DNA from: Candidatus Eiseniibacteriota bacterium
GTDB taxonomy: Bacteria; Orphanbacterota; Orphanbacteria; Orphanbacterales; Orphanbacteraceae
Assembly: GCA_043809585.1 (NCBI GenBank)
Contig: JBDROZ010000081.1
Location: 1-49,730, forward strand
Length of the DNA stretch: 49,730 nucleotides
Direction: 5' to 3'
Below the pieces are notes generated by a model. It was given only the letters and a program-made list of their open reading frames with translations. It was not told the origin of the DNA and did no database searches. Below, in pieces: positions 5,382 through 38,054 of the stretch. Made by a program: the position numbers and the translations under genes. How positions within the stretch are numbered: the stretch's first letter is position 1; the number at the start of each line of letters is the position of its first letter.

Positions 5382-5387
5382 CCGGCC

Positions 5388-6627: not shown

Positions 6628-6662
6628 AGGCCGACGGAACCGAGACAGAATGATGAACGATC
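6628..6662 (+). repeat. 35-bp direct repeat, copy 2 (possible relic of a second helicase 5' end)
   Basis: AGGCCGACGGAACCGAGACAGAATGATGAACGATC, 33/35 identical to 2470-2504. Confidence 0.85.
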
Positions 6663-12185: not shown

Positions 12186-12613
12186 CGTACCTCCCCCTCT
12201 TTCCTTCCGGCGCGCTCCGCGCCTCTTCCGATCTCTCCCCGGCCGGCCGCGAGCGCGTCCACGACTTCGAGGAGACGCGCCGGGTCGAACGGTTTTGTCA
12301 GGTACCCCTCCACGCCGCGGCCCTCCAGATCCCGCCTCACCTCCGGGCTCTCGTCGGCGGTCAAGACCACGACAGGCACGGCGGGGAAGCGTTCCCGGAG
12401 AAGGCGGTGAATGCGAACCCCCTCGCTCGGAGAGTCGGGCTCCGGGGGGAGATGAAGATCGAGCAGCACGAGGTCGACCGGCCCGGCGGCGGCCGCTTCG
12501 GCCGCCTCGCGGAAATCGCCCGCCTCGCGGATGTCGTAGCGGCTCCGGAGGGCATGGCACACGAGACTCCGGGCTTCCTTCTGGTCGTCCACGACAAGCA
12601 CCGTCTTCCTCAT
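12182..12613 (-). CDS. Single-domain response regulator (REC)
   Basis: VLVVDD, DLVLLDLHLPP, VVVLTA and YLTKPF motifs. Confidence 0.88.
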   Translation of the reverse strand: MRKTVLVVDDQKEARSLVCHALRSRYDIREAGDFREAAEAAAAGPVDLVLLDLHLPPEPDSPSEGVRIHRLLRERFPAVPVVVLTADESPEVRRDLEGRGVEGYLTKPFDPARLLEVVDALAAGRGEIGRGAERAGRKEGEVR

Positions 12614-12686
12614 GATCTTGGTCTCTCCGAGGTCGATCCCTCCGGCAGCTTTCTCGGGGCCGAAGGGACGTTCTCCTTCCCCCCTG

Positions 12687-12702
12687 AGCAGCCGGCGTGC
12701 CA
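12687..12702 (-). promoter_or_regulatory. sigma-54 (-24/-12) promoter
   Basis: TGGCAC-GCCGG-CTGCT on the minus strand, with an IHF-like TAACTCATTGAAA at 12721-12733. Lies directly downstream of an enhancer-binding protein gene. Confidence 0.65.
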
Positions 12703-12876
12703 CCGAAGAACCCGCACCCATAACTCATTGAAAATCAAGGTAATCGGTGGGTAGGACCGACCGCGCGACGGGGAGGGGCGCTGAATTTTCCGTCCTCGGC
12801 CCGTGAGAAATCGAGGGGATGCCGTGAGTTTGTCAAGGCCCCGCCCGAAGAGACCCCGAGCGCGCTATCCGAGCGG

Positions 12877-16128: not shown

Positions 16129-17820
16129 TCATCGGTCGGCGTTCCTCACGCGGACCCGTTCGTAGAAACAGATGTTGAGCGGGTTCGTGCAGTTCGGCTC
16201 CCAATCCCCCACCCGGGGCGAGACGATCTGGCTCTCTCGCTCATGATGGAGGAAGATCGCCGCCTCGTCCCGAACGAGCATCTTCTCCAGCCTCCGGGCG
16301 ATCAGGGTCCGCTCCTCCTGCTCCCGGGTGTCACAGAAGAGGTGGAAGAGCGAGTCGTACGCCTCGTCCCGGTACCGCCCGAAGTTCTCGGAGGAGCGGG
16401 AGTAGAACAGCTTGAGAAAGGTGAGCGGTTCCGGGTAGTCCGCGATCCACCCGGCCCGGAAGAGGTCCGGCCCGCCCTCCCCGATGAGCGCGTAGTACGC
16501 CGCCGGAGTGTAGGTGGCGAACTCGACGGGAACGCCGATCTCCCGCACTGCCGCGGCGACGGCGTTCCCCACACCGGCGTCCCAAGACGGCCAGGCGATC
16601 CGGAGGGGAGGAAGACCCTTCCCTTCCGGACACCCCGCTTCCCGAAGGAGTTCCCGGGCCCTCTCCAGATCCTGCCCCTGCCCCTCCAGCTCCGGGTCGT
16701 ACCCGGGAAGGCCGGGCGGAAAGAGACCGCGGGCCGGGAGCGGCATTCGGCCGAGCGGCCTCGGGATGGCGCAGCCCAGAGCCTCACGAAGCGTGCGTCT
16801 CCGGACCGCGGGATGGCCGGAGCGGAAATCGAACGCGATGAAGATCGTGTTGAGGCGCGGCACGAAGAAGACCTGTTCCACTTGCCGCGGCGGCGGGAAT
16901 TCCGGCCCGCCCATCCCCTCCTCCCCCGGAATCGGCCGCGCGGCGGAGCGGACGTAGCTCGACATCATGTCGATCCTCCCCTCGGCATAGAGACGGACGC
17001 CGTCGCCGCGCCAGACCGGGACGAAGCGGAGCGCATCGACGTACGGGAGGCGCTCGCCGTCTTCATCTCTCCGCCAGTACCCCCTGTTCCGCACGAGAAG
17101 GATCCCCGAGAGAGGGTCCCACGAGGCGAGCCGGAACGGGCCGCTCCCCGCGGCCCGGATTCGGAGCTCCTCTCCGTAGCTCTCGACCGCCTCCCGGGGG
17201 ACGATGCGGAAACGGATGTGGGCGATCTCGTGCAGAAGGGTCGGGTTCGGCCGGAGAAGGCGAATCACGAGGGTCGAGGGGGAGAGCGCCTCGATTCCGC
17301 GGACGTGGTCGCTCTCGCCGGCGAGATACTCCCCGACCCCCACGACCGTGGAGAGCTCCCTCTCGGCGGCGGTCGCGCCCGGCGCCTTCAGGCCCCTCTC
17401 CATCGAGTATTTGGCGTCGGCCGCCTCGACCTCGCGGCCCTTTCCTCCGGGGAAGCAAGGATCATCCACAAAGCGAACGCCCCGGTGCAGCAAGAAGGTC
17501 CATTCGAGACCGGCTTCGGCGACGGACCATTCCTCGGCGATCCGGGGAACGACCGCGAGGGTGTTCGGATCGTAATCGACGAGCCCCTCGTAGAGCTGCC
17601 GGACGACGTTGTAGGTCAGGATTTCGCCTCCCTCGACGGGGTCGAGGCTTCGAATGTCCCGGGGGAGGGGAACCCGAAGTTCAGCGCACCCGCTCTCCGG
17701 CGGGCGTGAGTCAGGGGAGCAGGAGATGAAACACACCGTCCCGGGAATCATGAGAAGAAGCAAGATCCGGAACCGCGCTCGGCCAGCGAGCGCCCGTGAG
17801 GAAGGATCGGCGCCGTGCAT
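16129..17820 (-). CDS. ABC-type substrate-binding lipoprotein, family 5 (peptide/nickel-like)
   Basis: Lipobox-like FISC, SLDP, QLYEGLV, PRIAEEW, GVRF.DDPCFPGGKGREV, GSGPFRL and GWIADYPEP motifs. Start codon is uncertain. Confidence 0.88.
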   Translation of the reverse strand: MHGADPSSRALAGRARFRILLLLMIPGTVCFISCSPDSRPPESGCAELRVPLPRDIRSLDPVEGGEILTYNVVRQLYEGLVDYDPNTLAVVPRIAEEWSVAEAGLEWTFLLHRGVRFVDDPCFPGGKGREVEAADAKYSMERGLKAPGATAAERELSTVVGVGEYLAGESDHVRGIEALSPSTLVIRLLRPNPTLLHEIAHIRFRIVPREAVESYGEELRIRAAGSGPFRLASWDPLSGILLVRNRGYWRRDEDGERLPYVDALRFVPVWRGDGVRLYAEGRIDMMSSYVRSAARPIPGEEGMGGPEFPPPRQVEQVFFVPRLNTIFIAFDFRSGHPAVRRRTLREALGCAIPRPLGRMPLPARGLFPPGLPGYDPELEGQGQDLERARELLREAGCPEGKGLPPLRIAWPSWDAGVGNAVAAAVREIGVPVEFATYTPAAYYALIGEGGPDLFRAGWIADYPEPLTFLKLFYSRSSENFGRYRDEAYDSLFHLFCDTREQEERTLIARRLEKMLVRDEAAIFLHHERESQIVSPRVGDWEPNCTNPLNICFYERVRVRNADR

Positions 17821-18169: not shown

Positions 18170-18598
18170 TCAGCTCATGATGTACTTTTCGAGTTCCTGG
18201 ATCGTGAACTCATGGTCGGAGATGACCTTCTTGACCACATCGCCGATGCTGACGATGCCGACGAGCTTCTTCCCTTCCACGACCGGGAGATGGCGGATCT
18301 TGGAGTTCGTCATGATCTGCATGCACGTGTCGATCGAGTCATCGGGACTGATGCAGTAAATCCGGGAGGTCATCATCTCCCGGACCGGCGAACTCTTGGA
18401 CGACTTGCCGTGGAGAACCACTTTGCGGGCGTAGTCCCGCTCCGAGAAGATACCGACCACCTTGTCTCCCTCCACGACGGGGAGGGCGCCCACGTTCTTC
18501 TCCGCCATCATCTGGAGGGCGTCGTAGACGAGGACGTCGGGGGCGATGAACCAGATATCCTTCCCCTTGGCATTCAATAGTAGTCGGACGTTGGGCAT
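18170..18598 (-). CDS. CBS-domain protein
   Basis: Tandem CBS pair: NVGALPVV..GIFSERDYARKV and IRHLPVV..GIVSIGDVVK. Confidence 0.93.
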   Translation of the reverse strand: MPNVRLLLNAKGKDIWFIAPDVLVYDALQMMAEKNVGALPVVEGDKVVGIFSERDYARKVVLHGKSSKSSPVREMMTSRIYCISPDDSIDTCMQIMTNSKIRHLPVVEGKKLVGIVSIGDVVKKVISDHEFTIQELEKYIMS

Positions 18599-18687
18599 GG
18601 TCTTCTCCTTCCCCCCGGGTTTCCGGCCCGCGGCGCGGGGGGGGCGGACCTTACCGCATCCCCGCCCCGCGGACCGGCCTTTGTATA

Positions 18688-18716
18688 ACTATGAACGGTG
18701 GAGGGCGCCGGGTCAA
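18688..18716 (-). promoter_or_regulatory. Putative sigma-70 promoter of the CBS gene
   Basis: TTGACC-17 nt-CATAGT on the minus strand, in an AT-rich patch. Confidence 0.35.
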
Positions 18717-18762
18717 CGGCGGGGTTCGGCCTTGATAAGGTGAGGGCGGTGTTCCCGACCGG

Positions 18763-19632
18763 TCAGGCGAGAGCCAGCAGAAGCTCCGATTTCTCGGCCT
18801 TCTCACGGATCTGCTCCACCACCTCGGGGATGTCGGCCACCGTGAGGCCGAGGCGTTTCCAGACCTCGTGATCATAGGCGGGAGCGCCGTCCCCGCTGCG
18901 GGCGAGCCCCTCCAGGTTGCAGATGTAGTTGGCCGTGTGGACCATTTCCACGAGATCCCGGTGCTCGGCGTCGGCCGACCGGGTTTCGTGATGCCACCGG
19001 ATGACCTGGATCAGGTCGGGGGAGAGATTCCACCGGATGCCGAGCCATGAGCCGACTTCGGCGTGGTTCGCTCCGATGACCCGCTCCTCGGCGGTCTGGA
19101 GCGGAATGCTCTCGGCCCGCGAGATGCCGAGGGCCGAGACGAATTCATCGTGGAAGAAGCCGTCCAGGACGATCTTGCCCATGTCGTGAAGCAGGCCGGC
19201 CAAGTGCAGGACGTCCCTCCCGTAGAGCCCGGCGAGATGGTCCTGGGCCCGATCGTAGATTACCATGGCGCCGATGCCGGTGATGATCGAGTGCCTCCAG
19301 AACTCCTCGCGCTCCGAGGGACCTCCCGGTCCTTCACCGAAGGCGCCGAAGACGGAGGTGGAGATCGCCACGTTGTGGACCGCGTTCATTCCCATGCGGG
19401 CCACCGCTTCCCGAACCGAGGAGATCGGCCTGCTCCCGGCGTAGAAGACGGAGTTCACCGTTTTCAGTACCCGGGCGGTGATGGCCGGGTCGTCCTCGAT
19501 GATCCGGGAGACCCGGCGGGCGTCCGAGTTCGGGTCCCTGATCACGCACCCGAGCCTCTCGATCACCGCCGGGAGGGTGGGCAGTCTGTCGATCGCCTGG
19601 AGTTCCCGGAATATGTCTCGCCGGTCCTTCAT
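18763..19632 (-). CDS. HDOD-domain protein
   Basis: LPTLP, DPAITARVLK.VNS, FWRHS, GLLHDMGK, H.EVG.WL..RW and RWHH motifs. Confidence 0.92.
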   Translation of the reverse strand: MKDRRDIFRELQAIDRLPTLPAVIERLGCVIRDPNSDARRVSRIIEDDPAITARVLKTVNSVFYAGSRPISSVREAVARMGMNAVHNVAISTSVFGAFGEGPGGPSEREEFWRHSIITGIGAMVIYDRAQDHLAGLYGRDVLHLAGLLHDMGKIVLDGFFHDEFVSALGISRAESIPLQTAEERVIGANHAEVGSWLGIRWNLSPDLIQVIRWHHETRSADAEHRDLVEMVHTANYICNLEGLARSGDGAPAYDHEVWKRLGLTVADIPEVVEQIREKAEKSELLLALA

Positions 19633-19694
19633 GGTGCTCCACCTGTCGCGGGGGGCCCCCGGTTCACTCGCCGTGAGAAACGCTTACCTCCCAA

Positions 19695-19721
19695 GTATCG
19701 TCCGGTCCGCCTAGAAATTGA
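19695..19721 (-). promoter_or_regulatory. Putative sigma-28 (FliA) promoter for the HDOD gene
   Basis: TCAA-15 nt-GACGATAC against the consensus TAAA-N15-GCCGATAA. Confidence 0.5.
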
Positions 19722-19766
19722 GGGGCCTCGGCCGCCCCCCTGCGCCGGACCGGGCGCCCCACAGGG

Positions 19767-19793
19767 TAAAGTTTCCGGGATAAATGCCGATAG
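19767..19793 (+). promoter_or_regulatory. sigma-28 (FliA) promoter for cheD-HDOD
   Basis: TAAAGTTTCCGGGATAAATGCCGATAG, a near-perfect TAAAGTTT-N11-GCCGATAA match. Confidence 0.85.
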
Positions 19794-19856
19794 CCGGAGT
19801 AGGTCGTGACCGTGCCATCGCCGGCGCATCGGGGCCCGGCGCTCCGGGGACCGAAC

Positions 19857-20435
19857 ATGGGAATCGGGAAACAGGAGCCGACGGCCCTTCGAACAAATGG
19901 TTCGAAGGGGATTCCGAATCCCCGAACCGCGTCGGGGCCGCCCTCGCTCGTGGGCGGGAACATCCTCACCGTCCACATCTCCAACCTCAAGGTGAGCAAC
20001 GACCCCAAAGACGTGCTGGTCACGTACGCCCTCGGATCGTGCATCGCCGTGGTCATTCACGACCCCGTCCGAGTGGCGGGCGGGATGATCCACTTCATGC
20101 TCCCCCGGTCGGGCGTCTCCCCCGCCAAGGCGGTGGCGAACCCGGCCATGTATGCCGACACCGGCGTCCCCCTCCTCTTCCGGCGCATGTACGAGCTCGG
20201 ATCGGCCCGGGAAGACCTGGTGGTCAAGGTCGTCGGCGGAGGCAATCTGTACGATCCGGAGGGGACCTACAACATCGGGGAGCGGAATTACGGGGCCCTC
20301 CGGGAGGTCTTCGAGAAGCACGGCATCCCGATCGCCGCCGAAGACGTGGGCGGATCGGAATCCCGAACGGCCCGGCTTCACGTCGGGACCGGCATCGTCG
20401 TCGTTCGATCCCGGGGGAGAGAGGTGGAGCTGTGA
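19857..20435 (+). CDS. cheD: Chemoreceptor glutamine deamidase CheD
   Basis: LVTYALGSCIAV..HDP, GGMIHFMLP, YADTG, VKVVGGG, IGERN and EDVGG..SRT motifs. Start codon is uncertain. Confidence 0.92.
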   Translation: MGIGKQEPTALRTNGSKGIPNPRTASGPPSLVGGNILTVHISNLKVSNDPKDVLVTYALGSCIAVVIHDPVRVAGGMIHFMLPRSGVSPAKAVANPAMYADTGVPLLFRRMYELGSAREDLVVKVVGGGNLYDPEGTYNIGERNYGALREVFEKHGIPIAAEDVGGSESRTARLHVGTGIVVVRSRGREVEL

Positions 20436-21295
20436 GTCCCGTCGACGACATTTTGAAAGAGGTCCGGGACCTGCCGACCCTCCCTTCCGCGATCGCCCGC
20501 CTCTCCGCCCTCGTCGGCGACCCTTCGGCCAACGCGGACGACTTCGAGGCGGTGATCCGCCCCGACCCGTCCCTCACGGCGAACCTCCTCCGCCTGGCCA
20601 ACTCCGCCTATTTCGGGCTCCCCCGGGAGGTGGGATCGGTCCGCCAGGCGGTGATCCTCCTGGGGATCAAGCGGGTCTTCGAGCTGGCCGCGGGCGCCTC
20701 GTTCACCGGCGTGATTCCGGAGCGCATCCCGGGCTACGGCATCAACGCCACCGACTTCTGGCAGCACTCGCTCGCCGTGGCGGCCCTCTCGGAGAGGCTG
20801 GCCTCGGACCTTCGGGTTCAGGTCCCGGACATGACCTTCACGGCCGGCCTCCTCCACGACATCGGCAAGATCGCCGTCGGCGCCTACCTTCAGGGGCGGC
20901 CCGAGGCGCTCGGCGACGAAGCCCGCAAAGAGGGGGTGTTCCTGATCGACGCGGAGCGGGCCTTGATGGGCTTCGACCACGGGGAGGTCGGCGAGACGGT
21001 CGGCGAGCAATGGTCGTTGCCCCCCGCCATCGTCCAGGGCGCCCGGTGGCACCACGCGCCCGGGGACGCTCCTCCCGGCGCGGACCGGACCATGATCGAC
21101 CTGATCCACGCCGCCGACGGCCTCGCCCACGCGCTCGGTCTCGGCGCCGACGTGGGTGAACTCTCGCGGCGGGTCGACGGGGGCGTGATCGAGAGGCTCG
21201 GCATCGGGGTCCAGCGGCTCGAGCGCGTGGCGGGCGAGACGGTCGACGACATCCGCGCCATGGGCGAACTCTTGGCCTCGGGGGCGGCGGTCTAG
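20432..21295 (+). CDS. HDOD-domain protein
   Basis: GTG start overlaps the cheD stop (GTGA). LPTLP, DPSLTANLLRLANSAYFG, FWQHS, GLLHDIGK and RWHH motifs. Confidence 0.92.
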   Translation: MSPVDDILKEVRDLPTLPSAIARLSALVGDPSANADDFEAVIRPDPSLTANLLRLANSAYFGLPREVGSVRQAVILLGIKRVFELAAGASFTGVIPERIPGYGINATDFWQHSLAVAALSERLASDLRVQVPDMTFTAGLLHDIGKIAVGAYLQGRPEALGDEARKEGVFLIDAERALMGFDHGEVGETVGEQWSLPPAIVQGARWHHAPGDAPPGADRTMIDLIHAADGLAHALGLGADVGELSRRVDGGVIERLGIGVQRLERVAGETVDDIRAMGELLASGAAV

Positions 21296-21325
21296 GCGCC
21301 CGGGCCGGCTCTTTCCGAACGAGAG

Positions 21326-21356
21326 AACGCCCGCGATTCCGGGGGTCGCGGGCGTT
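21326..21356. terminator. Hairpin between convergent transcription units
   Basis: AACGCCCGCGA...TCGCGGGCGTT, an 11-bp perfect stem followed by TCCTGTTT on the + strand. Confidence 0.55.
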
Positions 21357-21379
21357 TCCTGTTTCCGGGGGATCTTCGA

Positions 21380-22924
21380 TCAGACCGCCGAAGGCGCCGG
21401 AGCGCTTTCCGCCGGTACCGCCGAACCGGCCCCCGTCCCTCCCCCCCGCGGGGTCAGCCGGTCGGCCAGGCGGGTCAGCTCCCGAGAGACGGCGTTCTCG
21501 GTCCGGATCTCGGCGAAGGGGATGAAGGAGAGCTTCTCGGCGAGCACGGCCGGCATGAACGGGCCCCGTCCCTCCCCGAGCCCCTCGGCGACACCCCACG
21601 CCATCCGCCGGGCCAGGGCGATGTCCTGATTGTTCGGGAGGGCGCCCCGGAGAGACCGGGAGAAGGGCTCGGCCACGATCTTCTTGTTCGACTCGATCCC
21701 GGTCTCCCGGAGAAGGCGGACGAAATGCTCCGCCGCGTTCTCCCCCCGCTCTTTCCGGGACGGATCGTCGGCGGCGAATCCCTCGGCGACGGCGATGACC
21801 CCGTAGTCCCTCCGGTTCAGCTCCTCCATGACGGTCCCGAAGTCCGGTTTCGAGGAGGGGAGCACGGCCATGTGGGCCCGGGCGCCGAGGCAGGAGTAGA
21901 GGGCGTGGAAGCCCCCCCGGGCGCCCATGAACTCGACCACGTAGACCCGCTTGTGGGTCCGGGCGTCGGCCATGTAGCGACGCAGCTTGTCGGCGCCGTA
22001 CTCGACGCCCGTGTGCTGGCCGATGCACTCGGTCCCGGAGACGTCGCTGTCCACGGTCACGGGAACGAAGGCGCAGCGCACGTGCGAGGGGAGACGGCTC
22101 GCGAGTTCCCGGACGCCCATCAGCGTCCCGTTCCCCCCCACCCCGACCAGCGCCCGGACACCCCGGCCGAGAAGGTTCTTTACGGCCCTCATCTGGTTCT
22201 CGGGGTCCTCGAACTCCCGGTAGCGTTCGCTCCGGAACTGGGCGCCCGCCGAGTCGTTCAGGAACGCGGCGTTGAACACGCCGGGGACGTTCTCGATCCG
22301 CCGGTGCTCTCTCTGATCGTAGACGAGACGGGCGAAGTCCCCGTCCCCGCCCGACACGAGCGACCGGAAGCCCTCCCGGGCCGCGTACACCCTCCGGCCC
22401 CGCCGCTCCAGCTCATCGGTCAGAAAGGCCGTGACCGGGTTGTACCCGGGCGCGCAGCCCCCATCCTGAACGACGAGGACGTCCATTTCCCGGTACATCT
22501 GGCGCCGCTGCAGTTCGGGGCCCCGGGAACGGAGCAGCCGCCTTTCCGCCACCTGCAGGAAGGCGGCGAGAACGGCCGGCACGACCGGTTTCCCGAGATA
22601 CCCGTCGGCCCCCCGGGCGAGGGCGTCCCTTTCCCCGTCCCCTCCCGCGCCGGCGACCAGGAAGAAGATGTCCGCCGATTCGGGGCTCGACTTCAGGCGG
22701 GAGCAGATGTCGAAGGCGGAAACGCCCTCCACCGACTCGTCGCAGAGAACGATATCCGGCGTCGTGCGGCGGATCTCGCCGAGCGCCTCCTCGCCGTCCG
22801 CCGAACAGCGCACCTCGTAGTCCCGTCTCTGGAGTTCCCGGCAGAGCCGGAACTGAACTTCCAGATCCGGGTCCACCACGAGAATCCGGAATGGCCGCAT
22901 CACGCCCCCGTCCGCGCTCCCCAT
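21380..22924 (-). CDS. Response-regulator receiver domain fused to a PfkA-family 6-phosphofructokinase-like domain
   Basis: N-terminal ILVVDPD, PDIVLCD and GADGYLGKP. C-terminal DGGCAPGYN, EGFRSL, GVGGNGT, PVTVDSD, VYVVEFMG, IAVAEGF and LRGALP line up with the PfkA motifs GGDAPG, GGDG, PxTIDND, EVMGR, vAEG and QRGG.P. Confidence 0.85.
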   Translation of the reverse strand: MGSADGGVMRPFRILVVDPDLEVQFRLCRELQRRDYEVRCSADGEEALGEIRRTTPDIVLCDESVEGVSAFDICSRLKSSPESADIFFLVAGAGGDGERDALARGADGYLGKPVVPAVLAAFLQVAERRLLRSRGPELQRRQMYREMDVLVVQDGGCAPGYNPVTAFLTDELERRGRRVYAAREGFRSLVSGGDGDFARLVYDQREHRRIENVPGVFNAAFLNDSAGAQFRSERYREFEDPENQMRAVKNLLGRGVRALVGVGGNGTLMGVRELASRLPSHVRCAFVPVTVDSDVSGTECIGQHTGVEYGADKLRRYMADARTHKRVYVVEFMGARGGFHALYSCLGARAHMAVLPSSKPDFGTVMEELNRRDYGVIAVAEGFAADDPSRKERGENAAEHFVRLLRETGIESNKKIVAEPFSRSLRGALPNNQDIALARRMAWGVAEGLGEGRGPFMPAVLAEKLSFIPFAEIRTENAVSRELTRLADRLTPRGGGTGAGSAVPAESAPAPSAV

Positions 22925-22941
22925 GGCCGAACCTCCCCGTC

Positions 22942-24474
22942 TCAAGGCCGCTTCGGCAGTCGAATGGTGAAGACGGCCCCCCGGCCCTCCGCGGTGCCGA
23001 GAGCGATCTCCCCCCCGTGCTCTTCGATGATCTTCTTCGTCACCGCGAGACCGAGTCCGGTCCCCTTGCTCCCCTTGGTCGTGTAGAGGGCGTCGAACAC
23101 GTGCTCCCGGTGCTCCGGCTTCACGCCGGGGCCGTCGTCGCTCACCGTGATCCGGACCGACGGTTCGCCGGGGGCCCATTCGGTGCGTATCTCCACGTCT
23201 CCGCCGTTGTCGACGGCTTCCACGGCATTCGTGATCAGATTGGACAGGCACCGGTAGATGCCGGTCGAGTCGACCGGCACCGGCTCCATCGACTCGTCGA
23301 GAACGAGCCTCGATTCGAACCCCTTCGCCGCCGCGGCCGGCTGCATGGCCGTCGTGATCTCCGTGACGAGCACGTTCAGGTCCTGAGGCTCCCGGGTCGG
23401 CTTTCGGCTCTTCGAGTAATCGAGCATGTCGAGAGTGAACGATGAGATCCGGTCCATGGCGGAGCTGAAAAGCGGGTACGCCCTGCGAACCGCCTCCATG
23501 TCGTCCCGCTGCACGCCCTGCTCGAGAAGGAACCGGGCGCCCCGCATGCTCTGAAGCATGTTCTTGATGTCGTGGGAGAGGCCGGCCATCACCTGGCCGA
23601 TCGTGGCGAGGCGCTCCCGCTGCACCACTTCGCGGTGAAGGAGGGCGTTCTCCACGGCGGTGGCGGCGAGCTGGCAGATTTCGCCCGCCGCCTCGAGCTT
23701 CGGGGAGTCGTGACTCTCCACCGCCGGATTCGCCACCTGCATCACGCCGACCACCCGGGTGCGGCTGACGAGGGGGAGGAACAGAAGGCACTCGAGGTCG
23801 ATCCCCGCCGCCGCCGGGGGGAGGTGGCTCACGTCGGGGTTCTTGAGGAGCAGGGGCTCCCCGACCTCGGCGACCAGTTCTCCCACCGGCCTTCCTTCGA
23901 GAACGATCGCCCCCGTGACCTCTTCGGGGAGGCCGAGGGAAACGGAAGTCACGAACCGGTTGCCGTCCCACTGAAGGACCGATCCGACGTCGCTCCCCAC
24001 GACCTTCATCACCTGTTCCACCGCCCGGGCGAGAACGTACTCGACGTCGAAGCCCCCCACCACGGCGCTCATGGACCGGAGGACCTCCCGGTCGATGAGC
24101 CGGCGGCGCGCCTCCTCTTCCGCCTCGTTCCAGAGGCTCAGCTTGACGAGGGCCGCGGCGAGGTGATCGCCGACGATCTCCAGTTCGTCGGCATCCACGG
24201 GGACGCCGATGCCGAACTCGCCCACCGGATCGCCCCGGAAACGGAGCACCGCCGTCGCCCCCCCCCGCGGCTCCGGCGCGCCGTCCCTACCGGTCCGGGC
24301 GCCGACGCCTCCGAGGCACCTCTCCCCCTCGCCGGGAAGGATCAGCCGCCACGGCACGGGTCCGGCGAGCGCCTCGACCAGATCGCCGCAGGCCCGCTCC
24401 AGCTCCGCCTCGTCGAGGGCGCCGTGCACCGCGGCCAGAGCGCCGGCCCACTCGTTCGTCTTCGTCTCACTCAT
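22942..24474 (-). CDS. Cytoplasmic GAF-domain sensor histidine kinase
   Basis: GAF (LPL....VVGVMQVAN, AVENALL), H-box SHDIKNML, NLITNAVEA, DDGPG, YTTK and GTGLGL. No TM segment seen. Confidence 0.92.
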   Translation of the reverse strand: MSETKTNEWAGALAAVHGALDEAELERACGDLVEALAGPVPWRLILPGEGERCLGGVGARTGRDGAPEPRGGATAVLRFRGDPVGEFGIGVPVDADELEIVGDHLAAALVKLSLWNEAEEEARRRLIDREVLRSMSAVVGGFDVEYVLARAVEQVMKVVGSDVGSVLQWDGNRFVTSVSLGLPEEVTGAIVLEGRPVGELVAEVGEPLLLKNPDVSHLPPAAAGIDLECLLFLPLVSRTRVVGVMQVANPAVESHDSPKLEAAGEICQLAATAVENALLHREVVQRERLATIGQVMAGLSHDIKNMLQSMRGARFLLEQGVQRDDMEAVRRAYPLFSSAMDRISSFTLDMLDYSKSRKPTREPQDLNVLVTEITTAMQPAAAAKGFESRLVLDESMEPVPVDSTGIYRCLSNLITNAVEAVDNGGDVEIRTEWAPGEPSVRITVSDDGPGVKPEHREHVFDALYTTKGSKGTGLGLAVTKKIIEEHGGEIALGTAEGRGAVFTIRLPKRP

Positions 24475-24481
24475 CGGTCCC

Positions 24482-25447
24482 TCATTTCAAGCCCGTGAAG
24501 AGATCCCTCACGTTCTCCACTTTTTCCGTGTAGCCGCCGGTGATCTCGAGATAGCGTTCCCCGGAGATGCCGAGGGCTTCGAGCATCGCCGTCTCCCCCG
24601 CTTCGTTCACCGCGGCTTCCCGGAAGCCGACCCCGAGCCGGTGGGCGGCGAGGTTCGCCAGTCCGACGAGGCGGACCGCCCGGATCGTGGACGGATCGGC
24701 CCCGCCCGGCGCGTGATGGTGGCGGACGGAGGCGGCCGTCACGGGGGCGAGCCGCCACTTCTCGGCGAGCCGGCCGCCGACGTCGCAGTGGTTCAGATCC
24801 GCGACCCGCCGCTCCCAATCGACGATCGCCGCGGCCTCTTCGGGCCGGGGCTCCTCCGACGGGTCCCGGATCAAACCCTCGAGGATCGGACCGAGCACGA
24901 TCTTGCCGATGTCGTGGAGGAGGCCGCCGACGTAGACGGCGTCCTGGCCGTCTTGGTCCTCCTTCGCCTCTCGAGCGAACTCCCGCGCGAGCTCGGCCGT
25001 GGCGTAGGAGTGCATCCAGAGGCCGCCCGGAAAGATCCCGTATGCGTGGAGATCGGCCCCCAGGAACTTCAGCGTCGCGGCGGCCATGGCCAGGCTGCGC
25101 ACGGAGAGGAACCCGAGCATCACCACCGCCTGCTGCACCGACGCCACCGGGACCGTAGGGGAGTAGAACGCCGAGTTGGCCAGCTTCAAGATTCGGGCGG
25201 TGAGGACCGCGTCCTTCTCGATGCACCTCCGGAGATCGTCGGCGGCGGACGTGTCGCTTTTCGTCAGGCCGACCAGCTCGGTCAGCACTGTCGGGAAGGG
25301 GGGCAGGTTTTCCATCCGAGAGTCCACTTCCTTGAGGACCCGGACCCGGCGGACGCCGAAGGGTTGATCGGCGCCCCGGGTGCTCTTCGCTCCGGTTCCC
25401 TCCTGGGGCCCTCCCCCTCTTCTCACCCAGATCACCTGCTGGGACAA
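24482..25447 (-). CDS. HDOD-domain protein
   Basis: LPPFP, DAVLTARILKLANSAFY, LWMHS, GLLHDIGK and RHHH motifs. TTG start is uncertain. Confidence 0.9.
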   Translation of the reverse strand: MSQQVIWVRRGGGPQEGTGAKSTRGADQPFGVRRVRVLKEVDSRMENLPPFPTVLTELVGLTKSDTSAADDLRRCIEKDAVLTARILKLANSAFYSPTVPVASVQQAVVMLGFLSVRSLAMAAATLKFLGADLHAYGIFPGGLWMHSYATAELAREFAREAKEDQDGQDAVYVGGLLHDIGKIVLGPILEGLIRDPSEEPRPEEAAAIVDWERRVADLNHCDVGGRLAEKWRLAPVTAASVRHHHAPGGADPSTIRAVRLVGLANLAAHRLGVGFREAAVNEAGETAMLEALGISGERYLEITGGYTEKVENVRDLFTGLK

Positions 25448-25460
25448 GGCTCTCTCCTTT

Positions 25461-26282
25461 CTACGGGCTCGGGGGCCCGGTCCACTCTTCGCCCGGGACC
25501 TCGAATACGTGCCCTCGGGTCGGCCCCGTGGGGCTGAACCACGTGTCTTCCGCTTCCCCGCTCTTCTTTTCCTCCGCCGTCCCGGAGGTGAAACAATCGA
25601 GGGAGATTTCCACTCTCCGGTTCATGGCGCGGTGCTCCGGCGTGTCGTTGGCGACGATCGGCCGGCTCGCCCCCCTCCCCTCGGCGAGGAGGCGGCGTCC
25701 GTCGAGCCCGGACCGCTCGAAGAAACGGACGATGTCGACCGCCCGGGCCATCGAGAGCTCCCAGTTCGACGGGTAACGGGCCGTCCGGATCGGCATGTCG
25801 TCGGAATGCCCGGTGACCCTGATCCCCCCCGGCCAATCCCCGAGGAACCGCGCCACTTCGTCCATGACCGGTATCGCGTCCTGTTTCAGGCCCGCGCTTC
25901 CGGGGTCGAAGAGAACGAGGCTCCCGAGGGTGAGCGAAAAGCCCGGTTCCGTCTCGTCGATCCGGACCAGGTTCGCCGCGTCCTTCCCGAGAAGCTGCTC
26001 GAGGGCCATTCGCAGCTTCTCCGCCTCCTTCCGGATATCCCCCCGCGATTGGGTAAGAACGCCGGGACCTCCGCTGCTGATCAGGTTCGTCTGGTCGGCG
26101 CTCCGGAGGAGGGAGAAGGCGCCCCGAACGGAACCGATGGCCGAGCGGAAGCGTGGCCCCTGCACCTGGGCGAGGGAGACCATGATCACCATGAAGCAAA
26201 AAAGGAGGAGCATCAGGGAGATGAACGTCATCTCCTGAGTCTCGTCCGCCGCCTCCTTGCGCGGCTTCCGCCTACCCACCAC
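25461..26282 (-). CDS. motB: MotB-like stator protein 2 (OmpA domain; TM helix lacks the conserved Asp)
   Basis: TM MTFISLMLLLFCFMVIMVSL, then F...IGSV..AF, LFDPGSA, GHSDD.P, YPSNWELSMARA and NRRVEI. Confidence 0.85.
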   Translation of the reverse strand: MVGRRKPRKEAADETQEMTFISLMLLLFCFMVIMVSLAQVQGPRFRSAIGSVRGAFSLLRSADQTNLISSGGPGVLTQSRGDIRKEAEKLRMALEQLLGKDAANLVRIDETEPGFSLTLGSLVLFDPGSAGLKQDAIPVMDEVARFLGDWPGGIRVTGHSDDMPIRTARYPSNWELSMARAVDIVRFFERSGLDGRRLLAEGRGASRPIVANDTPEHRAMNRRVEISLDCFTSGTAEEKKSGEAEDTWFSPTGPTRGHVFEVPGEEWTGPPSP

Positions 26283-26300
26283 CGGGCAACCCTCCCGCCT

Positions 26301-27035
26301 CTACCGGAAGTCGAGACGGATCTCGACCCGCCGGTTCCGGCGCCGGTGTTCTTCGTCCTCGTTCGGGACGAGGGGGAAGAACTCTCCTCTCGCCCGGGGG
26401 ACGATCGACGCCTCGCCGAGGCCCTCCGCCTCGAGATAGCGGACGACACTCGCCGCCCGCGCCCCCGACAATTGCCAGTTCGACCCGTACCGTCCGGCCC
26501 GGGTCGGGAGATCGCACGTGTGCCCGTCCACCGAGACATCCACGGGACCCGCCCTGATGATCCGCCCGATCGGCTCGAGGAGGAGGGCCGCTTCGGGGAT
26601 CAGGTCGGCGCTCCCCGGCGCGAACGCCACGGGCTCGGCGAGGCGAAAGATGAAACCCTCCCCTGCGGTCTCCACTTCGACCTCGCCGTAAAACCTGGAG
26701 GAGCCCGCCAGGCCCAGGAACTCCTCCATGCCGCCCACCGCTTCCTTGGCGGCGATCCCGAAAGATCCGCCCATGGAAGCCAGGAGCGGGATCACCCCCG
26801 TGTTGCCGTTCAGCGCTCCGTCGCCGCTGGCCGCCATGATGGCGTCGGCCGACTTCCCCGCGACGAGGCCGAGCATCCGATCGATCGCCCCCCGGGCCGT
26901 CTCCCATTCGCCCGGCTGATAGGTCGACGAGGCGTAGATCAGCACGTAGAAGGTGAGAAGGAGGGTGGCGAGGTCGCCGAACGTCGCCAGCCAAGACGCC
27001 GGTTCCTCCTGTTCGGGCCGCGGTTTCTTGCTCAT
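26301..27035 (-). CDS. motB: Flagellar motor stator protein MotB
   Basis: WLATFGDLATLLLTFYVL, GHTCD, SNWQLSGARA and RNRRVEI. Start overlaps the motA stop. Confidence 0.92.
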   Translation of the reverse strand: MSKKPRPEQEEPASWLATFGDLATLLLTFYVLIYASSTYQPGEWETARGAIDRMLGLVAGKSADAIMAASGDGALNGNTGVIPLLASMGGSFGIAAKEAVGGMEEFLGLAGSSRFYGEVEVETAGEGFIFRLAEPVAFAPGSADLIPEAALLLEPIGRIIRAGPVDVSVDGHTCDLPTRAGRYGSNWQLSGARAASVVRYLEAEGLGEASIVPRARGEFFPLVPNEDEEHRRRNRRVEIRLDFR

Positions 27036-27811
27036 TTCGCGCCTTCGAGCACTTTCAGCTCGTCGCGCCGCCCCGGAGGCAGGAACGTCTTCAGTTTTCT
27101 CTCCACGAGCCTCGGGTTGTCTCCGGTCTGGATCGCGCGGATCCCCTCGAGCATCAACTCCTTCACGAGCATCTCGTTCTCCGAGATGGTCTCGAGCTTG
27201 CCCGCGAGAGGCAGGAAGACCATGTTCGCCAAGAGGGTGCCGTAGAACGTGGTGATCAACGCAACCGCCATCCCCGGCCCGATCGCGGAGGGATCGTTCA
27301 CGTTCTGAAGCATCTGGATAAGGCCGATCAGGGTTCCCATCATCCCGAAGGCGGGGGCGTATTTCGCCATCTGCTTGAACATGTCCCGACCCCGCCGGTG
27401 CCTCTCCGAAAGCAGCGTCAGCTCCATGGTCATGAGAGAGTTGATTCGGTCCAGATCCATGCCGTCGATGGCGAGTTCCATGCCGTTCTTGAGGAATGTG
27501 TCGTCCACCTCTTTCAGATCCCCCTCCAAGGCGAGAAGACCGTCCCTCCGCGCCTTCTCGGCGAATCTGACGAGGGTACGTATCGTCTCCTCGGGAGTGA
27601 ACGCCTTGTTCATGAAGGCGTTCTTCACGATCCGCATGACGCCGAGGAAATCGGTCAGGGGATAGTTGATCAGGGTGGCGCAGACGGTGCCGACCACGAC
27701 GATGAGGATCGAGGGAACGTTGATGAACGATCCGACCCCACCCCCCATGAGAATGGAGCCGAGGAGAACCGCGAAACCGGCCGCGATCCCGATGACGGTC
27801 GCGAGATCCAT
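27032..27811 (-). CDS. motA: Flagellar motor stator protein MotA (PomA-like)
   Basis: MDLATVIG, ARRDGLLALE, APAFGMMGTLIGLIQML, GPGMAVALITTFYG and GDNPR motifs. Confidence 0.95.
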   Translation of the reverse strand: MDLATVIGIAAGFAVLLGSILMGGGVGSFINVPSILIVVVGTVCATLINYPLTDFLGVMRIVKNAFMNKAFTPEETIRTLVRFAEKARRDGLLALEGDLKEVDDTFLKNGMELAIDGMDLDRINSLMTMELTLLSERHRRGRDMFKQMAKYAPAFGMMGTLIGLIQMLQNVNDPSAIGPGMAVALITTFYGTLLANMVFLPLAGKLETISENEMLVKELMLEGIRAIQTGDNPRLVERKLKTFLPPGRRDELKVLEGAK

Positions 27812-27847
27812 GATCTATGAAAACCCTTTCCCCCGAGAGGATCGGGA

Positions 27848-28045
27848 TCAGACGTTTCGCGCCCGGGCCCGGGTGCCCCGGGTGTACTCCTCCACCATGC
27901 GGGCGACGTCCGGGACCGACTCGCGAACGACGATCTTCTTTCCCGTCGTCAGCGTGATGACCGTGTCGGGGGTGGCCTCGAGGCTCTCGATCAGATCGGC
28001 GTTGAGGACGATCTTCTCGCCCTTCAGATGAGTCAAGGTGATCAT
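27848..28045 (-). CDS. flbD: Flagellar FlbD-family protein
   Basis: MITLT.L.G....LNADLIE..EATPDTVITLTTG.KIVVRES, located just upstream of motA. Confidence 0.93.
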   Translation of the reverse strand: MITLTHLKGEKIVLNADLIESLEATPDTVITLTTGKKIVVRESVPDVARMVEEYTRGTRARARNV

Positions 28046-28105
28046 CGGCCGTCGTTCCCTTTCCTCTCCGATCGCCCCGGAGCCGGCGGCCCGCGTCGGC
28101 GCGGG

Positions 28106-28408
28106 CTAGAAGCCGAAGGCGAGCATCAGCTCGTCGACGAGCGCCTCGATCGCCTCCGACGAGTCGTAGTACCCGCTGTCCAGTCTGTTCATGATCCGCT
28201 CCATCCGCGCATCCGGGGCTTGGCCGGAGGGCCCCGTCTTGGGCGCCCGGCCCGCTTGGAGATCCCGGGCTTCCAGGGAGATCTGAACCCGGTCCTCGTC
28301 GCCGGCGAATCTCCGTGACCCGTCGGCCGCTTTTCCGGTGCGCCGGTCCCCCCCCGCGCCGTTCTCTCTCGCCGGATTGACGTGCGGAGCTCCGTGTTCT
28401 ACCCGCAT
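28106..28408 (-). CDS. flgM: Probable anti-sigma-28 factor FlgM
   Basis: About 100 aa with DRVQIS..AR and RMERI..R..SGYY motifs, in flagellar context. Confidence 0.7.
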   Translation of the reverse strand: MRVEHGAPHVNPARENGAGGDRRTGKAADGSRRFAGDEDRVQISLEARDLQAGRAPKTGPSGQAPDARMERIMNRLDSGYYDSSEAIEALVDELMLAFGF

Positions 28409-28465
28409 GTCCTCTTTCCTTGGATCGAGTCTTGGTTCCCCGCGCCGTCCGCTTTGGACGGCCCC

Positions 28466-29878
28466 CTAGATCAAGCCGCTGTACAAGAAGTTCACGATTC
28501 CCTGGAGGCTCTGGGACATGGACATCGCCTCCTGGAGAGCGCCGTACTGCCTGATCAGCTCGGCTTCTTCCATATCCTGCAACCGTCCGAGCCTGTCGAT
28601 GCGGCCGTCCAGGAGTTCCCGGCGGCTCGAAATCGAATTCTCGCTTCCGTGGATGATTCCGGATGCCGACACGTACTGATCGAGAAGTCCCTCGAGCCGG
28701 CCCGCGATTCCGTCCGCCGAATTGAACAGATCCTCCACGGCGCCCAGATGGTTCGCCAGCGCTTCCTCGAAATCCTCCGTGTCGCTTATCGAAAAGCTCC
28801 CGGTAGAATTCGAGGTGATCCCGATCTGCGAGAGGGCGTAGAAGATTCCCCCTTCGACGGTGGAAACCGAGCCGGCCAGTGCGGTCCTCATGTTCTGCCA
28901 TAGGTTCACGTACGGGTAGTCGCCGGCGAGGTCGCCCCGGGCGTACGTCGTCTTGTCGACCGAGACCTTGCCGCGGAGGTATCCGAACGCCTCGTTGTAG
29001 GCGGTAAGGAACTCCTGCACCTTGGCGGTGATCGCCTCTGTGTCGACCGACACGTCGATGGTCACGTCCGCGTCCGCTTCGAGCTGGGCCGAGTTCAACT
29101 CCAGAGTGACTCCGGTCAAGACCCCGGTCACCGAATTCGAGGAGTGGGTGATGGCGATGCCGTCGACCGTGAGGCCGGCGTCGAGCTCCTCGTCGGCGTA
29201 GATGTAGCCCCCGGTGGTCTCCGTGGCGAGGACCCCGGCACTCACTCCGATCGCCGCGAGCAGGCCGTCGGTGTCGGTGAAGGAGATCTTGTTTTCGAGC
29301 CCGGTCTCCGCGCTGAAGAGGGAGAGTTTCACGGTGGTGCTCGAATCGGCGATCTTCGAAGCGCCGGCGGCGAGGTCGCTCGCGTCGTTCACCGCCGTCG
29401 CGATCTTCGCGAGAACCTCTTCGTTCGTCTCCCCCGCCACGATATCGACGCTGATGTCGTGGGTCTCGCCGTCCACGGTGATGGAGAAGCCCTTCGTCCC
29501 CTCGTGGGCCGCGGAAAGGGTGGTGTCGGCCGCCGTGATCCGATCGGAGACGACCGAGTACGCCCTCGCGAGCTGGTGTACGTGAATGGTGTGGCCCATG
29601 GAGAGAGCGCCCGAACCTGCCGTGGCGGTCACCACCGAATCGTTCGTCGACGTCGCGCTCTTCGCTCCGAAAGCGGAACTGCCGCCGATCCCGCCCAGTT
29701 CCTCGGCGAGGTCCTTCAGCGTCCGCAGCTGCGTCTTGAGGTCGCCGTAGACGCCCGTCCTGACATCGAGCGCGTCCCGCTGCGCTTCCACCCGCTGAAT
29801 GCGGTTCCTGGAAACCGTCATATAGGTATTCAGAAACTGCAGTAGTTCCGCGGAATAGACTCTCTCGGTTCGAATCAT
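28466..29878 (-). CDS. fliD: Flagellar filament cap protein FliD
   Basis: ATS....VTATA, VHQLARA, VDGI.IT.SSN.VT.VL.GVTL.L, F..AYN, LSQIGI and C-terminal L..QY.AL motifs. Confidence 0.92.
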   Translation of the reverse strand: MIRTERVYSAELLQFLNTYMTVSRNRIQRVEAQRDALDVRTGVYGDLKTQLRTLKDLAEELGGIGGSSAFGAKSATSTNDSVVTATAGSGALSMGHTIHVHQLARAYSVVSDRITAADTTLSAAHEGTKGFSITVDGETHDISVDIVAGETNEEVLAKIATAVNDASDLAAGASKIADSSTTVKLSLFSAETGLENKISFTDTDGLLAAIGVSAGVLATETTGGYIYADEELDAGLTVDGIAITHSSNSVTGVLTGVTLELNSAQLEADADVTIDVSVDTEAITAKVQEFLTAYNEAFGYLRGKVSVDKTTYARGDLAGDYPYVNLWQNMRTALAGSVSTVEGGIFYALSQIGITSNSTGSFSISDTEDFEEALANHLGAVEDLFNSADGIAGRLEGLLDQYVSASGIIHGSENSISSRRELLDGRIDRLGRLQDMEEAELIRQYGALQEAMSMSQSLQGIVNFLYSGLI

Positions 29879-30228
29879 CTCGTTCCCGCCGGGCGCCCCG
29901 TTTCGACTTCGTCGACGACCTGGGCCCACGAGCTCCGGAGCTCGGAGAGGAGACCCATCACTTCCTCGAACCGCTTCTCCCGGTTCGCGTCCAGGCAGTA
30001 CTCGTAGATCCGCCAGAGAGGACCCGCGATTTCCAGATGCTCGAGGTCGAGGCCCTTCATCAACTCGACGATCCCCTTGTTCGCGCGGACCCAGTCGGAT
30101 CTCCGGCAACAGGCGATGATGTAGTCGTAGGTCTGCAGGACGAGCTGCCCCGGCGTCGACCCTTCCACCTTATTCGTGACGTAGGTGGCGATGGCCGAAC
30201 TCGTATCTGTAGGACTCTCGATGGCCAT
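29875..30228 (-). CDS. fliS: Flagellin export chaperone FliS
   Basis: Y..N.V...TPGQLVL..YD, I.EL...LD, L.RIYEY and L.ELR.SW motifs. Confidence 0.9.
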   Translation of the reverse strand: MAIESPTDTSSAIATYVTNKVEGSTPGQLVLQTYDYIIACCRRSDWVRANKGIVELMKGLDLEHLEIAGPLWRIYEYCLDANREKRFEEVMGLLSELRSSWAQVVDEVETGRPAGTR

Positions 30229-30369
30229 TGGTTCCTCGTTTTATGAGCGGTGAACTTCCTTCGTCCGTCGCCCTCGGCCCGGGAGCCGGCCCGCTCCGAT
30301 TCGATTCGGCGGCGCGGCCGGACTGCGTCCGGGGAGCGGTGCCCCCCGGACGCGAAGGCCCCGGGCTCT

Positions 30370-31212
30370 CTACCCAAAAATCAGTTGCAATACCGACTGG
30401 GGCGCGTTGTTCGCCTGGGCGAGCATCGCGATCGCCGTCTGCTGCAACATCGAGTACTTGACCAGGTTCATCTGCTCTTCCGCCATGTCGGCGTTGAAGA
30501 CCCGGCTGTGCGCCGCGAGCTGGTTGTTGATGGCCACCGAAATGTTGGCCTCCTTGATGCCGACCCGGAACTGCGTCGAGCCGAGGGTCTGGAGGCTGGT
30601 GTTCAGCGTGCTGATCGCCGTGTTGACGTTCGAGAGCGACGTCGACGCGGCGGCGGAGGTGGTCACGTCCAGATCGCCGTCCGCGACGGTGAGGCCCGCG
30701 GCGGTGTGGCTCTGGGAGATCCCGAAGGAGAAGGTATCCGTGGAAGCCTCGCCGACCTGGAACTGCTTGCCCGTGAACGTGCCGTCCAGAAGGACGTTGC
30801 TGCCCCACGTCGTCGTCGTCACGATGTCGTTGATTTCGGCGGCAAGGTCGTCGAGCTGACTCTCGACCGCCGCCCGCTCTTCGCTGCCGATCGTGTCGTT
30901 GGCCGCCTGGAGGATCTTCTCCTTCATGGTGAGAAGAATCTCGCTGATGTCCTGGAGGCCGCCCTCGGCGGTGGCGATCAGGTTCTGAGCGTCACCGACG
31001 TTGTTCCGGGCCGTTTCGAGGCCCCGGATGCGGGACTCGAGCCGCTTCGCGAAGACGAGACCGGCCGGGTCGTCCCCCGCCGAGTTGATCCGCTTGCCGG
31101 TCGCCAGCCGGAGCTGGTGGACCGTCAGCTTCGAGTTGGTGTCCCGAAGCGCCTTGAGAGCGTTCAGGGCCGACATATTGGTGTTGATGCGCGACAGGTC
31201 AGCGCCCGCCAT
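30370..31212 (-). CDS. fliC: Flagellin
   Basis: RINTNMSALNA, RLATGKRINSAGDDPAG, TAEGGL and C-terminal ADMAEE....K..MLQQ...AMLAQAN..PQSVLQL. Confidence 0.97.
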   Translation of the reverse strand: MAGADLSRINTNMSALNALKALRDTNSKLTVHQLRLATGKRINSAGDDPAGLVFAKRLESRIRGLETARNNVGDAQNLIATAEGGLQDISEILLTMKEKILQAANDTIGSEERAAVESQLDDLAAEINDIVTTTTWGSNVLLDGTFTGKQFQVGEASTDTFSFGISQSHTAAGLTVADGDLDVTTSAAASTSLSNVNTAISTLNTSLQTLGSTQFRVGIKEANISVAINNQLAAHSRVFNADMAEEQMNLVKYSMLQQTAIAMLAQANNAPQSVLQLIFG

Positions 31213-31417
31213 GTTCTAGCTCCTTTCCCGATGGTACACGTCCGGCATCCTTGCCACACATCCCGATCGACCGTCCTTGATCAACCGGCTTCCCTTGCGC
31301 GGGGAATGGGGAAGCGTGTTCCCGCTCTCGAAGTTCCCGGCCACCTCCTTTCGCGGCCATCCGCTTGGAGTCAAAACGAATTCCTCCCGATTACTCTTGT
31401 GAAACCTCTGGTCTCTG
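31213..31417 (-). promoter_or_regulatory. Long flagellin 5' leader with multiple CsrA-type GGA sites
   Basis: 13 GGA triplets between 31221 and 31387, including the hairpin GGCA-AGGA-TGCC and the AAGGAG RBS. csrA and fliW are in the same cluster. Confidence 0.7.
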
Positions 31418-31422
31418 TGGAG

Positions 31423-38044: not shown

Positions 38045-38054
38045 CGAGAATCTC

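Follow-up and report, generated by a model that had tools for sequence, protein, structure and literature searches.

Phosphofructokinase (PFK) is a textbook example of small-molecule allostery. The bacterial signalling proteins closest to the one described here are the response regulators with enzymatic outputs (the CheB, PleD/WspR, RpfG and PP2C types), and Galperin and colleagues, in the passages of their article that concern such proteins, describe several cases of receiver (REC) domains linked to standard metabolic enzymes, each narrowly distributed (PMC5847659). Control of a bacterial PFK by a signalling kinase is described for Myxococcus, whose PfkA is phosphorylated by the kinase Pkn4 according to a passage of PMC6791715 that cites Nariya and Inouye (2003). 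Here we analysed a 49,730-nt stretch of DNA (the window) from a Candidatus Eiseniibacteriota bacterium (contig JBDROZ010000081.1 of assembly GCA_043809585.1, positions 1 to 49,730), in which the last gene of a flagellar stator gene run (21380-22924, minus strand) encodes a 514-aa fusion of a receiver with a PFK-family domain, REC-PFK. Similar to the response regulators with enzymatic outputs and the REC-metabolic enzymes, it has an N-terminal PF00072 domain, a linker, a C-terminal enzyme domain and a kinase neighbour; it differs from them in its output, a PFK, which we did not find in their descriptions, and in a receiver that lacks the conserved Thr/Ser and probably the second residue of the acidic pair (DD2). 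Our preferred reading, to which we give somewhat less than even odds, is that REC-PFK would be a signal-controlled PFK-family kinase in which the fused input domain has taken over allosteric control, and that it would pair with the histidine kinase encoded next to it.

Judged from its DNA, REC-PFK is a genuine single open reading frame (ORF) fusion. The preliminary description of this locus had proposed a receiver fused to a full-length PFK fold in one gene, and the domain searches agree with it: within an uninterrupted ORF, an atypical receiver domain at residues 14-121 (22562-22885, minus strand) matches Pfam Response_reg (PF00072) at 1.3e-12 and 48.3 bits, above the cut-off of 30.2, and a divergent PFK-family domain with a Pfam span of residues 149-446 (21587-22480, minus strand) matches PFK (PF00365) at 2.7e-42 and 145.5 bits against a cut-off of 30.9. 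The ORF opens with an ATG after a GGGAGG ribosome-binding site and continues through the domain junction, where the DNA has no in-frame stop; third-position GC (GC3) lies at 0.80-0.97 in every 40-codon block and at 0.85 in the block that holds the linker. In the linker itself (residues 122-148; 22481-22561, minus strand), the last receiver helix is extended and is followed by a Gly-Pro break and the usual PFK N-terminus, the helix call coming only from a low-confidence model. AlphaFold2, run on the single REC-PFK sequence, gave a mean predicted local distance difference test score (pLDDT) of 36.8 and a predicted template modelling score (pTM) of 0.28, too low for structural conclusions. The identical 514-aa sequence is present in the ESM Atlas, where its own model has a pLDDT of 0.82 and a pTM of 0.68; this record possibly derives from the same sample and is therefore not independent proof of the fusion.

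The PFK half carries the motifs GGNG, TVDSD, MGA and AEG, and its fold runs on to about residue 490, past the Pfam span. The PF00365 match covers profile positions 2-274 of 277, and the alignment to PRK03202, an ATP-PFK model of NCBIfam, spans positions 5-320 of its 323. For the residue map, in E. coli/Bacillus numbering, the domain was aligned to Bacillus PFK structures with HMMER and, with MAFFT, to four plasmid-borne genes annotated as pfkA (B. methanolicus, Meiothermus, Parabacteroides and Aeromonas), with which it shares 26-29% identity. Both comparisons show 11 conserved residues among the 15 catalytic or substrate positions (G11=G156, R72=R234, G104=G266, T125=T290, D127=D292, D129=D294, R162=R326, M169=M333, G170=G334, E222=E381 and R252=R426); T290, D292 and D294, the TxDxD core, fall in invariant columns of the MAFFT alignment, and HMMER with the Bacillus PFKs agrees. 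According to the sections of a preprint on TvPPi-PFK that deal with these motifs, Mg is bound by the first Asp of GGDx, the Asp of TID takes part in proton transfer, MGR and Glu are catalytic or substrate motifs, and the pyrophosphate (PPi)-type enzymes are marked by GGDD and the catalytic Lys of KTID (10.64898/2026.03.28.715000). REC-PFK lacks these PPi-PFK motifs, with Gly266 at the fourth GGxG position and V289 in place of the Lys before TxD (VTVD), and the Gly at 104 together with the non-Lys at 124 argues against a PPi-type enzyme. The single Arg and His residues (R162, R243, H249 and R252) and E222 are assumed to act as in the E. coli and Bacillus PFK literature, and R21, R25, R154 and E187 we likewise take to be the phosphoenolpyruvate (PEP)/ADP allosteric site. 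None of these last four is kept (R21 is A166, R25 is D170, R154 is M318 and E187 is H351); all four reference genes keep R21, R25 and E187, and R154 is Arg in three of them and Lys in one. Compared with PfkA of E. coli and Bacillus (PDB 4a3s, 3pfk and 1pfk), REC-PFK is alike in fold, length, conserved catalytic positions and TxDxD core but has GGNG, MGA, changed R243 and H249 equivalents, insertions of about 17 and 4 residues, a replaced effector site, the receiver, and a 25-residue low-complexity tail.

REC-PFK closes a run of six genes that forms the 3' end of a long flagellar cluster on the minus strand, in the order motA, motB, motB2, HDOD, GAF histidine kinase and REC-PFK. Pfam bore out the earlier family assignments of all six, and the genes are co-oriented with overlaps or gaps below 20 nt, as had been stated before; from motA to REC-PFK the junctions measure -4 (a 4-nt overlap), 18, 13, 7 and 17 nt, that is, gaps of 7-18 nt. 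The gene directly upstream of REC-PFK, across the 17-nt gap, encodes the soluble GAF histidine kinase that the preliminary description had placed there (510 aa; 22942-24474, minus strand; no transmembrane-like window), with GAF at residues 144-275, HisKA at 293-357 and HATPase_c at 402-509 (32.7, 23.8 and 96.1 bits, respectively), a candidate H-box His in an SHDIKN stretch, and the C-terminal half of AtoS as best NCBIfam match (177.5 bits); its N-terminal residues 1-140 match no Pfam family at E<=1. By gene arrangement the adjacent and co-oriented kinase and REC-PFK are a two-component pair, for which phosphotransfer is predicted. Beyond the REC-PFK stop, a GC-rich hairpin with a 10-bp stem, a 9-nt loop and T-rich tails on both strands (21327-21355) was read directly from the sequence as a candidate bidirectional terminator; it lies between that stop and a convergent plus-strand pair of cheD (19806-20435) and an HDOD gene (20432-21295) that overlap by 4 nt. 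Because of the tight spacing and the hairpin after the last stop, the packing looks like a single operon ending with REC-PFK. The consensus terminator scan did not report this hairpin, and over 20400-31500 terminator-like sites were at chance (6 found against 6.8 +/- 2.4 expected), as were sigma-70 promoter-like sites in a consensus scan of the same interval. A sigma-28 promoter consensus gave no matches, its -10 core gave 3 against 6.65 expected with none near the operon, and Rfam reported no riboswitch in the vicinity of the operon, its sole match being a tRNA at 57-141.

From the observed architecture, residue map and operon-like packing, we infer a chain that leads through ligand sensing, phosphotransfer and catalysis on a sugar phosphate to a link with motility. 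The GAF domain and the N-terminal region of the cytoplasmic kinase would sense an intracellular ligand, and the kinase would then act on the receiver of the fusion, through phosphorylation of Asp62 or, its active site being atypical, through binding. Together with its helical linker, the receiver may in turn shift the PFK-like domain, whose sugar-phosphate site would be completed by residues from a neighbouring subunit, to another oligomeric state or conformation. This switch would govern an ATP-type kinase reaction on fructose-6-phosphate or on a sugar phosphate closely related to it. That REC-PFK switches a glycolytic gate, as had been suggested for this locus, is on this alignment a possibility. 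The uninterrupted ORF with its uniform GC3 and good ribosome-binding site, the full-domain PFK match, the 11 retained positions and the adjacent, soluble kinase with its HATPase_c domain all support such an enzyme, and the loss of all four allosteric residues fits regulation by the fused domain: with the PEP/ADP pocket gone, control would have moved to the input domain. Since REC-PFK is probably co-transcribed with motA, motB and motB2, the metabolic step would be tuned along with stator production. Myxococcus xanthus PfkA/Pkn4 resembles this scheme as a bacterial PFK under a signalling kinase and not under metabolite allostery alone (as described in part of PMC6791715); there a separate enzyme is activated in trans by Ser/Thr phosphorylation, whereas here a fused receiver and a histidine kinase are proposed.

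We then compared REC-PFK with sequence collections and the literature. A scan of genome contigs, which used exact back-translated peptides and thus detects close relatives only, confirmed 1 of 48 candidate stretches, and this matched receiver residues 3-128 only; it lies in an Acidobacteriota metagenome-assembled genome, in an ORF that stops directly behind the receiver and has KaiB/KaiC-like genes close by, and was rejected as a relative of the fusion. A tblastn search of plasmids gave 360 matching records, each for one of the two domains, and in none did the match extend over 80% or more of REC-PFK. In the ESM Atlas, a feature search with the PFK part returned 30 nearest clusters that all have PFK as their only named family (the top one a 391-aa PFK, mostly from Myxococcota, score 0.94), and a structure search matched the PFK part to PFK clusters at template modelling (TM) scores of 0.79-0.90. 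The nearest structural cluster (TM 0.90 by query) has 72 members of 498 aa with cNMP_binding (97% of members) and PFK, is uncharacterised, and comes mostly from Calditrichota among members of known phylum. It shares with REC-PFK an N-terminal signal-input domain and a PFK of similar size and differs in that the input is a cyclic-nucleotide-binding domain and not a receiver; it shows that input-domain fusions to PFK of this type recur, and by analogy it would represent an equivalent solution built on another input. No Response_reg+PFK cluster was present among Atlas clusters of at least 50 members. Among the papers listed, full-text literature searches with several phrasings found neither REC-PFK nor any other regulator/PFK fusion, and none that joins phosphofructokinase to the flagellar motor or FliG; one candidate, PMC4106842, was set aside, as the parts concerned describe trypanosome GAPDH-like and PGK-like proteins and not PFK fusions. 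The earlier view of REC-PFK as undescribed thus holds for the protein, of which no description was found in these searches; its class, the fusion of REC to metabolic enzymes, is already recognised in the passages of PMC5847659 cited above, which makes the category less exceptional than first implied. The novelty is the PFK output domain; a response regulator with a metabolic-enzyme output is already known.

Several observations weigh against a signal-controlled kinase, and the first of them concern the receiver. It was compared with PDB 3t6k and PleD and, by MAFFT, with two canonical receivers, L001 and that of the window's own sigma-54 regulator, whose Thr and DD pair are canonical and which served as internal reference. 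The acceptor Asp (D62), the Lys (K112) and the aromatic residue at K-3 (Y109) are kept, but Ala91 stands at the Thr/Ser position, which is Thr in all four comparison receivers. At the acidic pair the sequence is D18-P19-D20; going by strand register, Pro19 occupies the metal-binding DD2 position, while the MAFFT and PleD alignments instead place P19 as an insertion and D20 as the second acid. Two of the five active-site residues are accordingly missing (A91 at T and, probably, P19 at DD2), and the usual D+4 Pro and D+8 Gly are Glu66 and Ala70. [quoted passage not shown] By that definition the receiver of REC-PFK, as aligned, is a pseudo-receiver. It resembles the PsR/atypical regulators, such as FrzS and CmrT, in missing at least one active-site residue together with the D+4 Pro and D+8 Gly, and differs from them in retaining D62, K112 and Y109 and in having a kinase gene as neighbour; among the atypical regulators discussed in the relevant part of the same preprint, 2 of 20 are non-orphans. 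The receiver can consequently no longer be regarded as the ordinary phosphotransfer module first described: with Ala91 and Pro19, simple phosphotransfer from His of the kinase to Asp with normal Y-T coupling cannot be assumed. In CheY, replacement of the Thr by Ala does not abolish phosphorylation. Here, phosphorylation of D62 may be possible, though it cannot be taken for granted.

Further points on this side come from the PFK half and from the surroundings. All three NCBIfam PFK cut-offs are missed (126.2 bits against 253 for PRK03202, 99.9 against 371.35 for TIGR02482 and 107.5 against 430.55 for TIGR02483). The Mg-binding Asp of GGDG (D103) is N265, the Arg of MGR (R171) is A335, with R336 one position later in M333-G334-A335, the R243 equivalent is N413, and that of H249 is E419 by MAFFT or R423 by HMMER, beside the 4-residue insertion. 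Two of the four sugar 6-phosphate ligands are thereby altered (R243 and H249), with R162 and R252 kept. Of the claim that this is a complete PfkA-like domain, the full-length fold remains; GGNG, MGA, the R243/H249 changes and scores of about half the NCBIfam cut-offs or less do not agree with the rest. The HisKA match of the kinase falls under the Pfam cut-off of 26.9 bits, no glycolytic genes lie within the 49.7-kb window, and the genome-contig and plasmid scans found no relative with the fusion and hence no evidence of conservation. Both halves of REC-PFK are, as aligned, degenerate at key residues; the fusion is confirmed as an observation and its chemistry is predicted.

These changes would fit a non-catalytic role, which we consider possible but less probable than a regulated enzyme. 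The PFK-like domain would then only bind a sugar phosphate or adenine nucleotide and report metabolic state to the motor or the kinase without changing flux, and the pseudo-receiver would serve to bind a partner protein, be it the kinase, HDOD or a part of the stator or rotor. The C-terminal half of eukaryotic PFK, a duplicated catalytic domain turned allosteric site, offers an analogy. In favour of such a sensor or adaptor are the 4 of 15 changed catalytic or substrate positions, including the Mg ligand and the MGR Arg, the receiver that falls within the published pseudo-receiver definition, and the stator operon context, beside an HDOD protein and a MotB paralogue with Ser at the ion-coupling Asp. 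Deletion or overexpression of a stand-alone HDOD protein of P. syringae reduced swimming, as reported in part of PMC11813219, and EpsE of Bacillus subtilis, a bifunctional glycosyltransferase and flagellar clutch, is a precedent for an enzyme-family protein that acts on the rotor, according to the section of PMC3000366 on this protein; EpsE belongs to another family and to the exopolysaccharide (EPS) operon, not a stator operon, and contact of REC-PFK with a motor protein is conjecture. Against this stands the retention, unexpected in a pure binding module, of the Asp that serves as catalytic base, of the Thr and Asp on either side of it, and of R72, R162, E222 and R252. Furthermore, the annotated Meiothermus taiwanensis pfkA of plasmid pMtWR-220 (325-1293), which adjoins a type II GAPDH gene, has GGGG and also lacks the GGDG Asp, so N265 alone does not prove inactivity and this position is not decisive.

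The four upstream genes of the run bear on a further reading in which the stator itself is the target. MotA, the stator A subunit (259 aa; 27032-27811, minus strand), matches Pfam MotA_ExbB (3.3e-29) and MotA_N, and its best NCBIfam matches are below cut-off (PomA, 281.6 bits against 341; MotP, 278.6 against 394). MotB (244 aa; 26301-27035, minus strand) matches MotB_plug (9.7e-11) and OmpA (1.7e-13), overlaps motA by 4 nt and retains the transmembrane Asp (TFGDL), which in MotB is essential for ion coupling. MotB2, a MotB paralogue (273 aa; 25461-26282, minus strand; OmpA 1.6e-16) with 31% identity to MotB (BLASTP 1e-33), has a weak MotB_plug match (22.5 bits, under the cut-off of 24) and one transmembrane-like segment, and a Ser (TFISL) aligns with that Asp; if the role of the Asp holds, MotB2 might be a non-conducting regulatory or structural stator partner. 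The stand-alone HDOD protein (321 aa; 24482-25447, minus strand) starts at a TTG with an AAGGAG ribosome-binding site and matches HDOD (5.4e-46), HD (1.2e-08) and TIGR00277 HDIG (34 bits; cut-off 27.6). It is unlikely, but worth stating, that REC-PFK, HDOD and the Asp-less MotB2 would constitute a stator-control module, in which the GAF kinase would set the state of the receiver, the PFK-like domain would sense fructose-6-phosphate or adenylate, and the complex would pick MotB or the non-conducting MotB2 for MotA.

With similarly low probability, the altered 6-phosphate pocket may belong to a kinase shifted to another sugar phosphate, for example a heptulose or ketose phosphate, whose product would feed the glycosyltransferases of the cluster and thereby a flagellar glycan. 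In its favour, the catalytic core is intact and the changes fall on two of the four 6-phosphate ligands, and a GT9 gene (heptosyltransferase family), a 1354-aa GT4+GT2+TPR gene, a GT2+TPR gene and a methyltransferase gene lie between fliW and the flagellin gene. These glycosyltransferase genes are nonetheless 9-17 kb away, beyond flagellin, fliS, fliD, flbD and the mot genes, and no sugar-nucleotide synthesis genes adjoin REC-PFK; in its heptulose form the reading also presupposes that enzymes of the PFK family can accept heptulose phosphates. The remaining explanation, that separate receiver and pfk genes were joined by an assembly or sequencing error (a lost stop or a shifted frame), has in its favour a Met (M146) just ahead of the normal first PFK strand, as in free-standing pfk, and the failure to find a second genome with the fusion, but it is very improbable, given that there is no in-frame stop, frame change or ribosome-binding site before M146, that GC3 stays at the level of its surroundings across the linker, into which the last receiver helix runs, that the Atlas holds the same sequence (with the reservation on its source made above), and that the cNMP-PFK cluster shows N-terminal fusions to such PFKs to occur naturally.

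The window as a whole has a GC content of about 66%, and 29 of the 34 candidate ORFs scanned matched a Pfam family. The minus-strand flagellar cluster comprises flgF, flgG, flgA, flgH, flgI, flgJ, flgN, flgK, flgL, fliW, several glycosyltransferase genes, a methyltransferase gene, flagellin, fliS, fliD and flbD. Its section from flagellin to fliW (31448-39260, minus strand), with the 1354-aa GT4+GT2+TPR protein, a 585-aa GT2+TPR protein, the methyltransferase and the GT9 gene, is probably flagellin glycosylation machinery of unusual size. A 100-aa ORF between fliD and flbD (28106-28408, minus strand) gives a sub-threshold match to FlgM, the anti-sigma-28 factor (E 0.061; 14 bits against 25). 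Signalling genes are dense beyond the operon, where the minus strand of the 18170-21295 region carries an HDOD gene (18763-19632) and a gene for a CBS-pair protein (18170-18598), so that, with those already mentioned, three stand-alone HDOD proteins are encoded within 7 kb. The sigma-54 regulator used as receiver reference (REC, sigma-54 activator and HTH_8; 12877-14772) belongs to a second two-component system on the minus strand, with a HAMP kinase (14286-16118), that adjoins an SBP_bac_5 solute-binding protein gene (16129-17820). Two large secreted-type proteins (7213-9483, plus strand; 9588-12728, minus strand) have C-terminal FlgD_ig or type IX secretion system (T9SS)-sorting-like domains, one of them also DUF7901 and GEVED domains, which hints at a lineage using such C-terminal sorting tags. 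Positions 1-8000, with a GC of 0.575-0.616 against about 0.68 elsewhere, begin with the tRNA gene (57-141, minus strand) and contain an AbiEii toxin-family gene (283-1272) and a gene for an 827-aa TOTE-system archaeo-eukaryotic primase (AEP) and helicase protein (2492-4975); this segment has the look of a defence island inserted at a tRNA.

REC-PFK is noteworthy for two features, the degeneracy of key residues in each half and the position at the end of a stator operon. With a single instance in hand, the significance of the protein depends on finding relatives. If it is a signal-controlled kinase, it would be a natural PFK that has lost its allosteric pocket and gained a two-component receiver, swapping allostery for modular signal input, with the cNMP-binding-PFK cluster of the Atlas as a sibling case, and it would constitute a compact, engineerable switch on a committed glycolytic step. 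If instead both halves are non-catalytic, REC-PFK would be an unusual double pseudo-enzyme signalling protein, and a stator-control module, if true, would form a direct physical link of central carbon status to torque, without known precedent. In either case, the place of REC-PFK as the last gene of the stator operon raises the question of whether sugar-phosphate metabolism or sensing is coupled to motor output in some bacteria.

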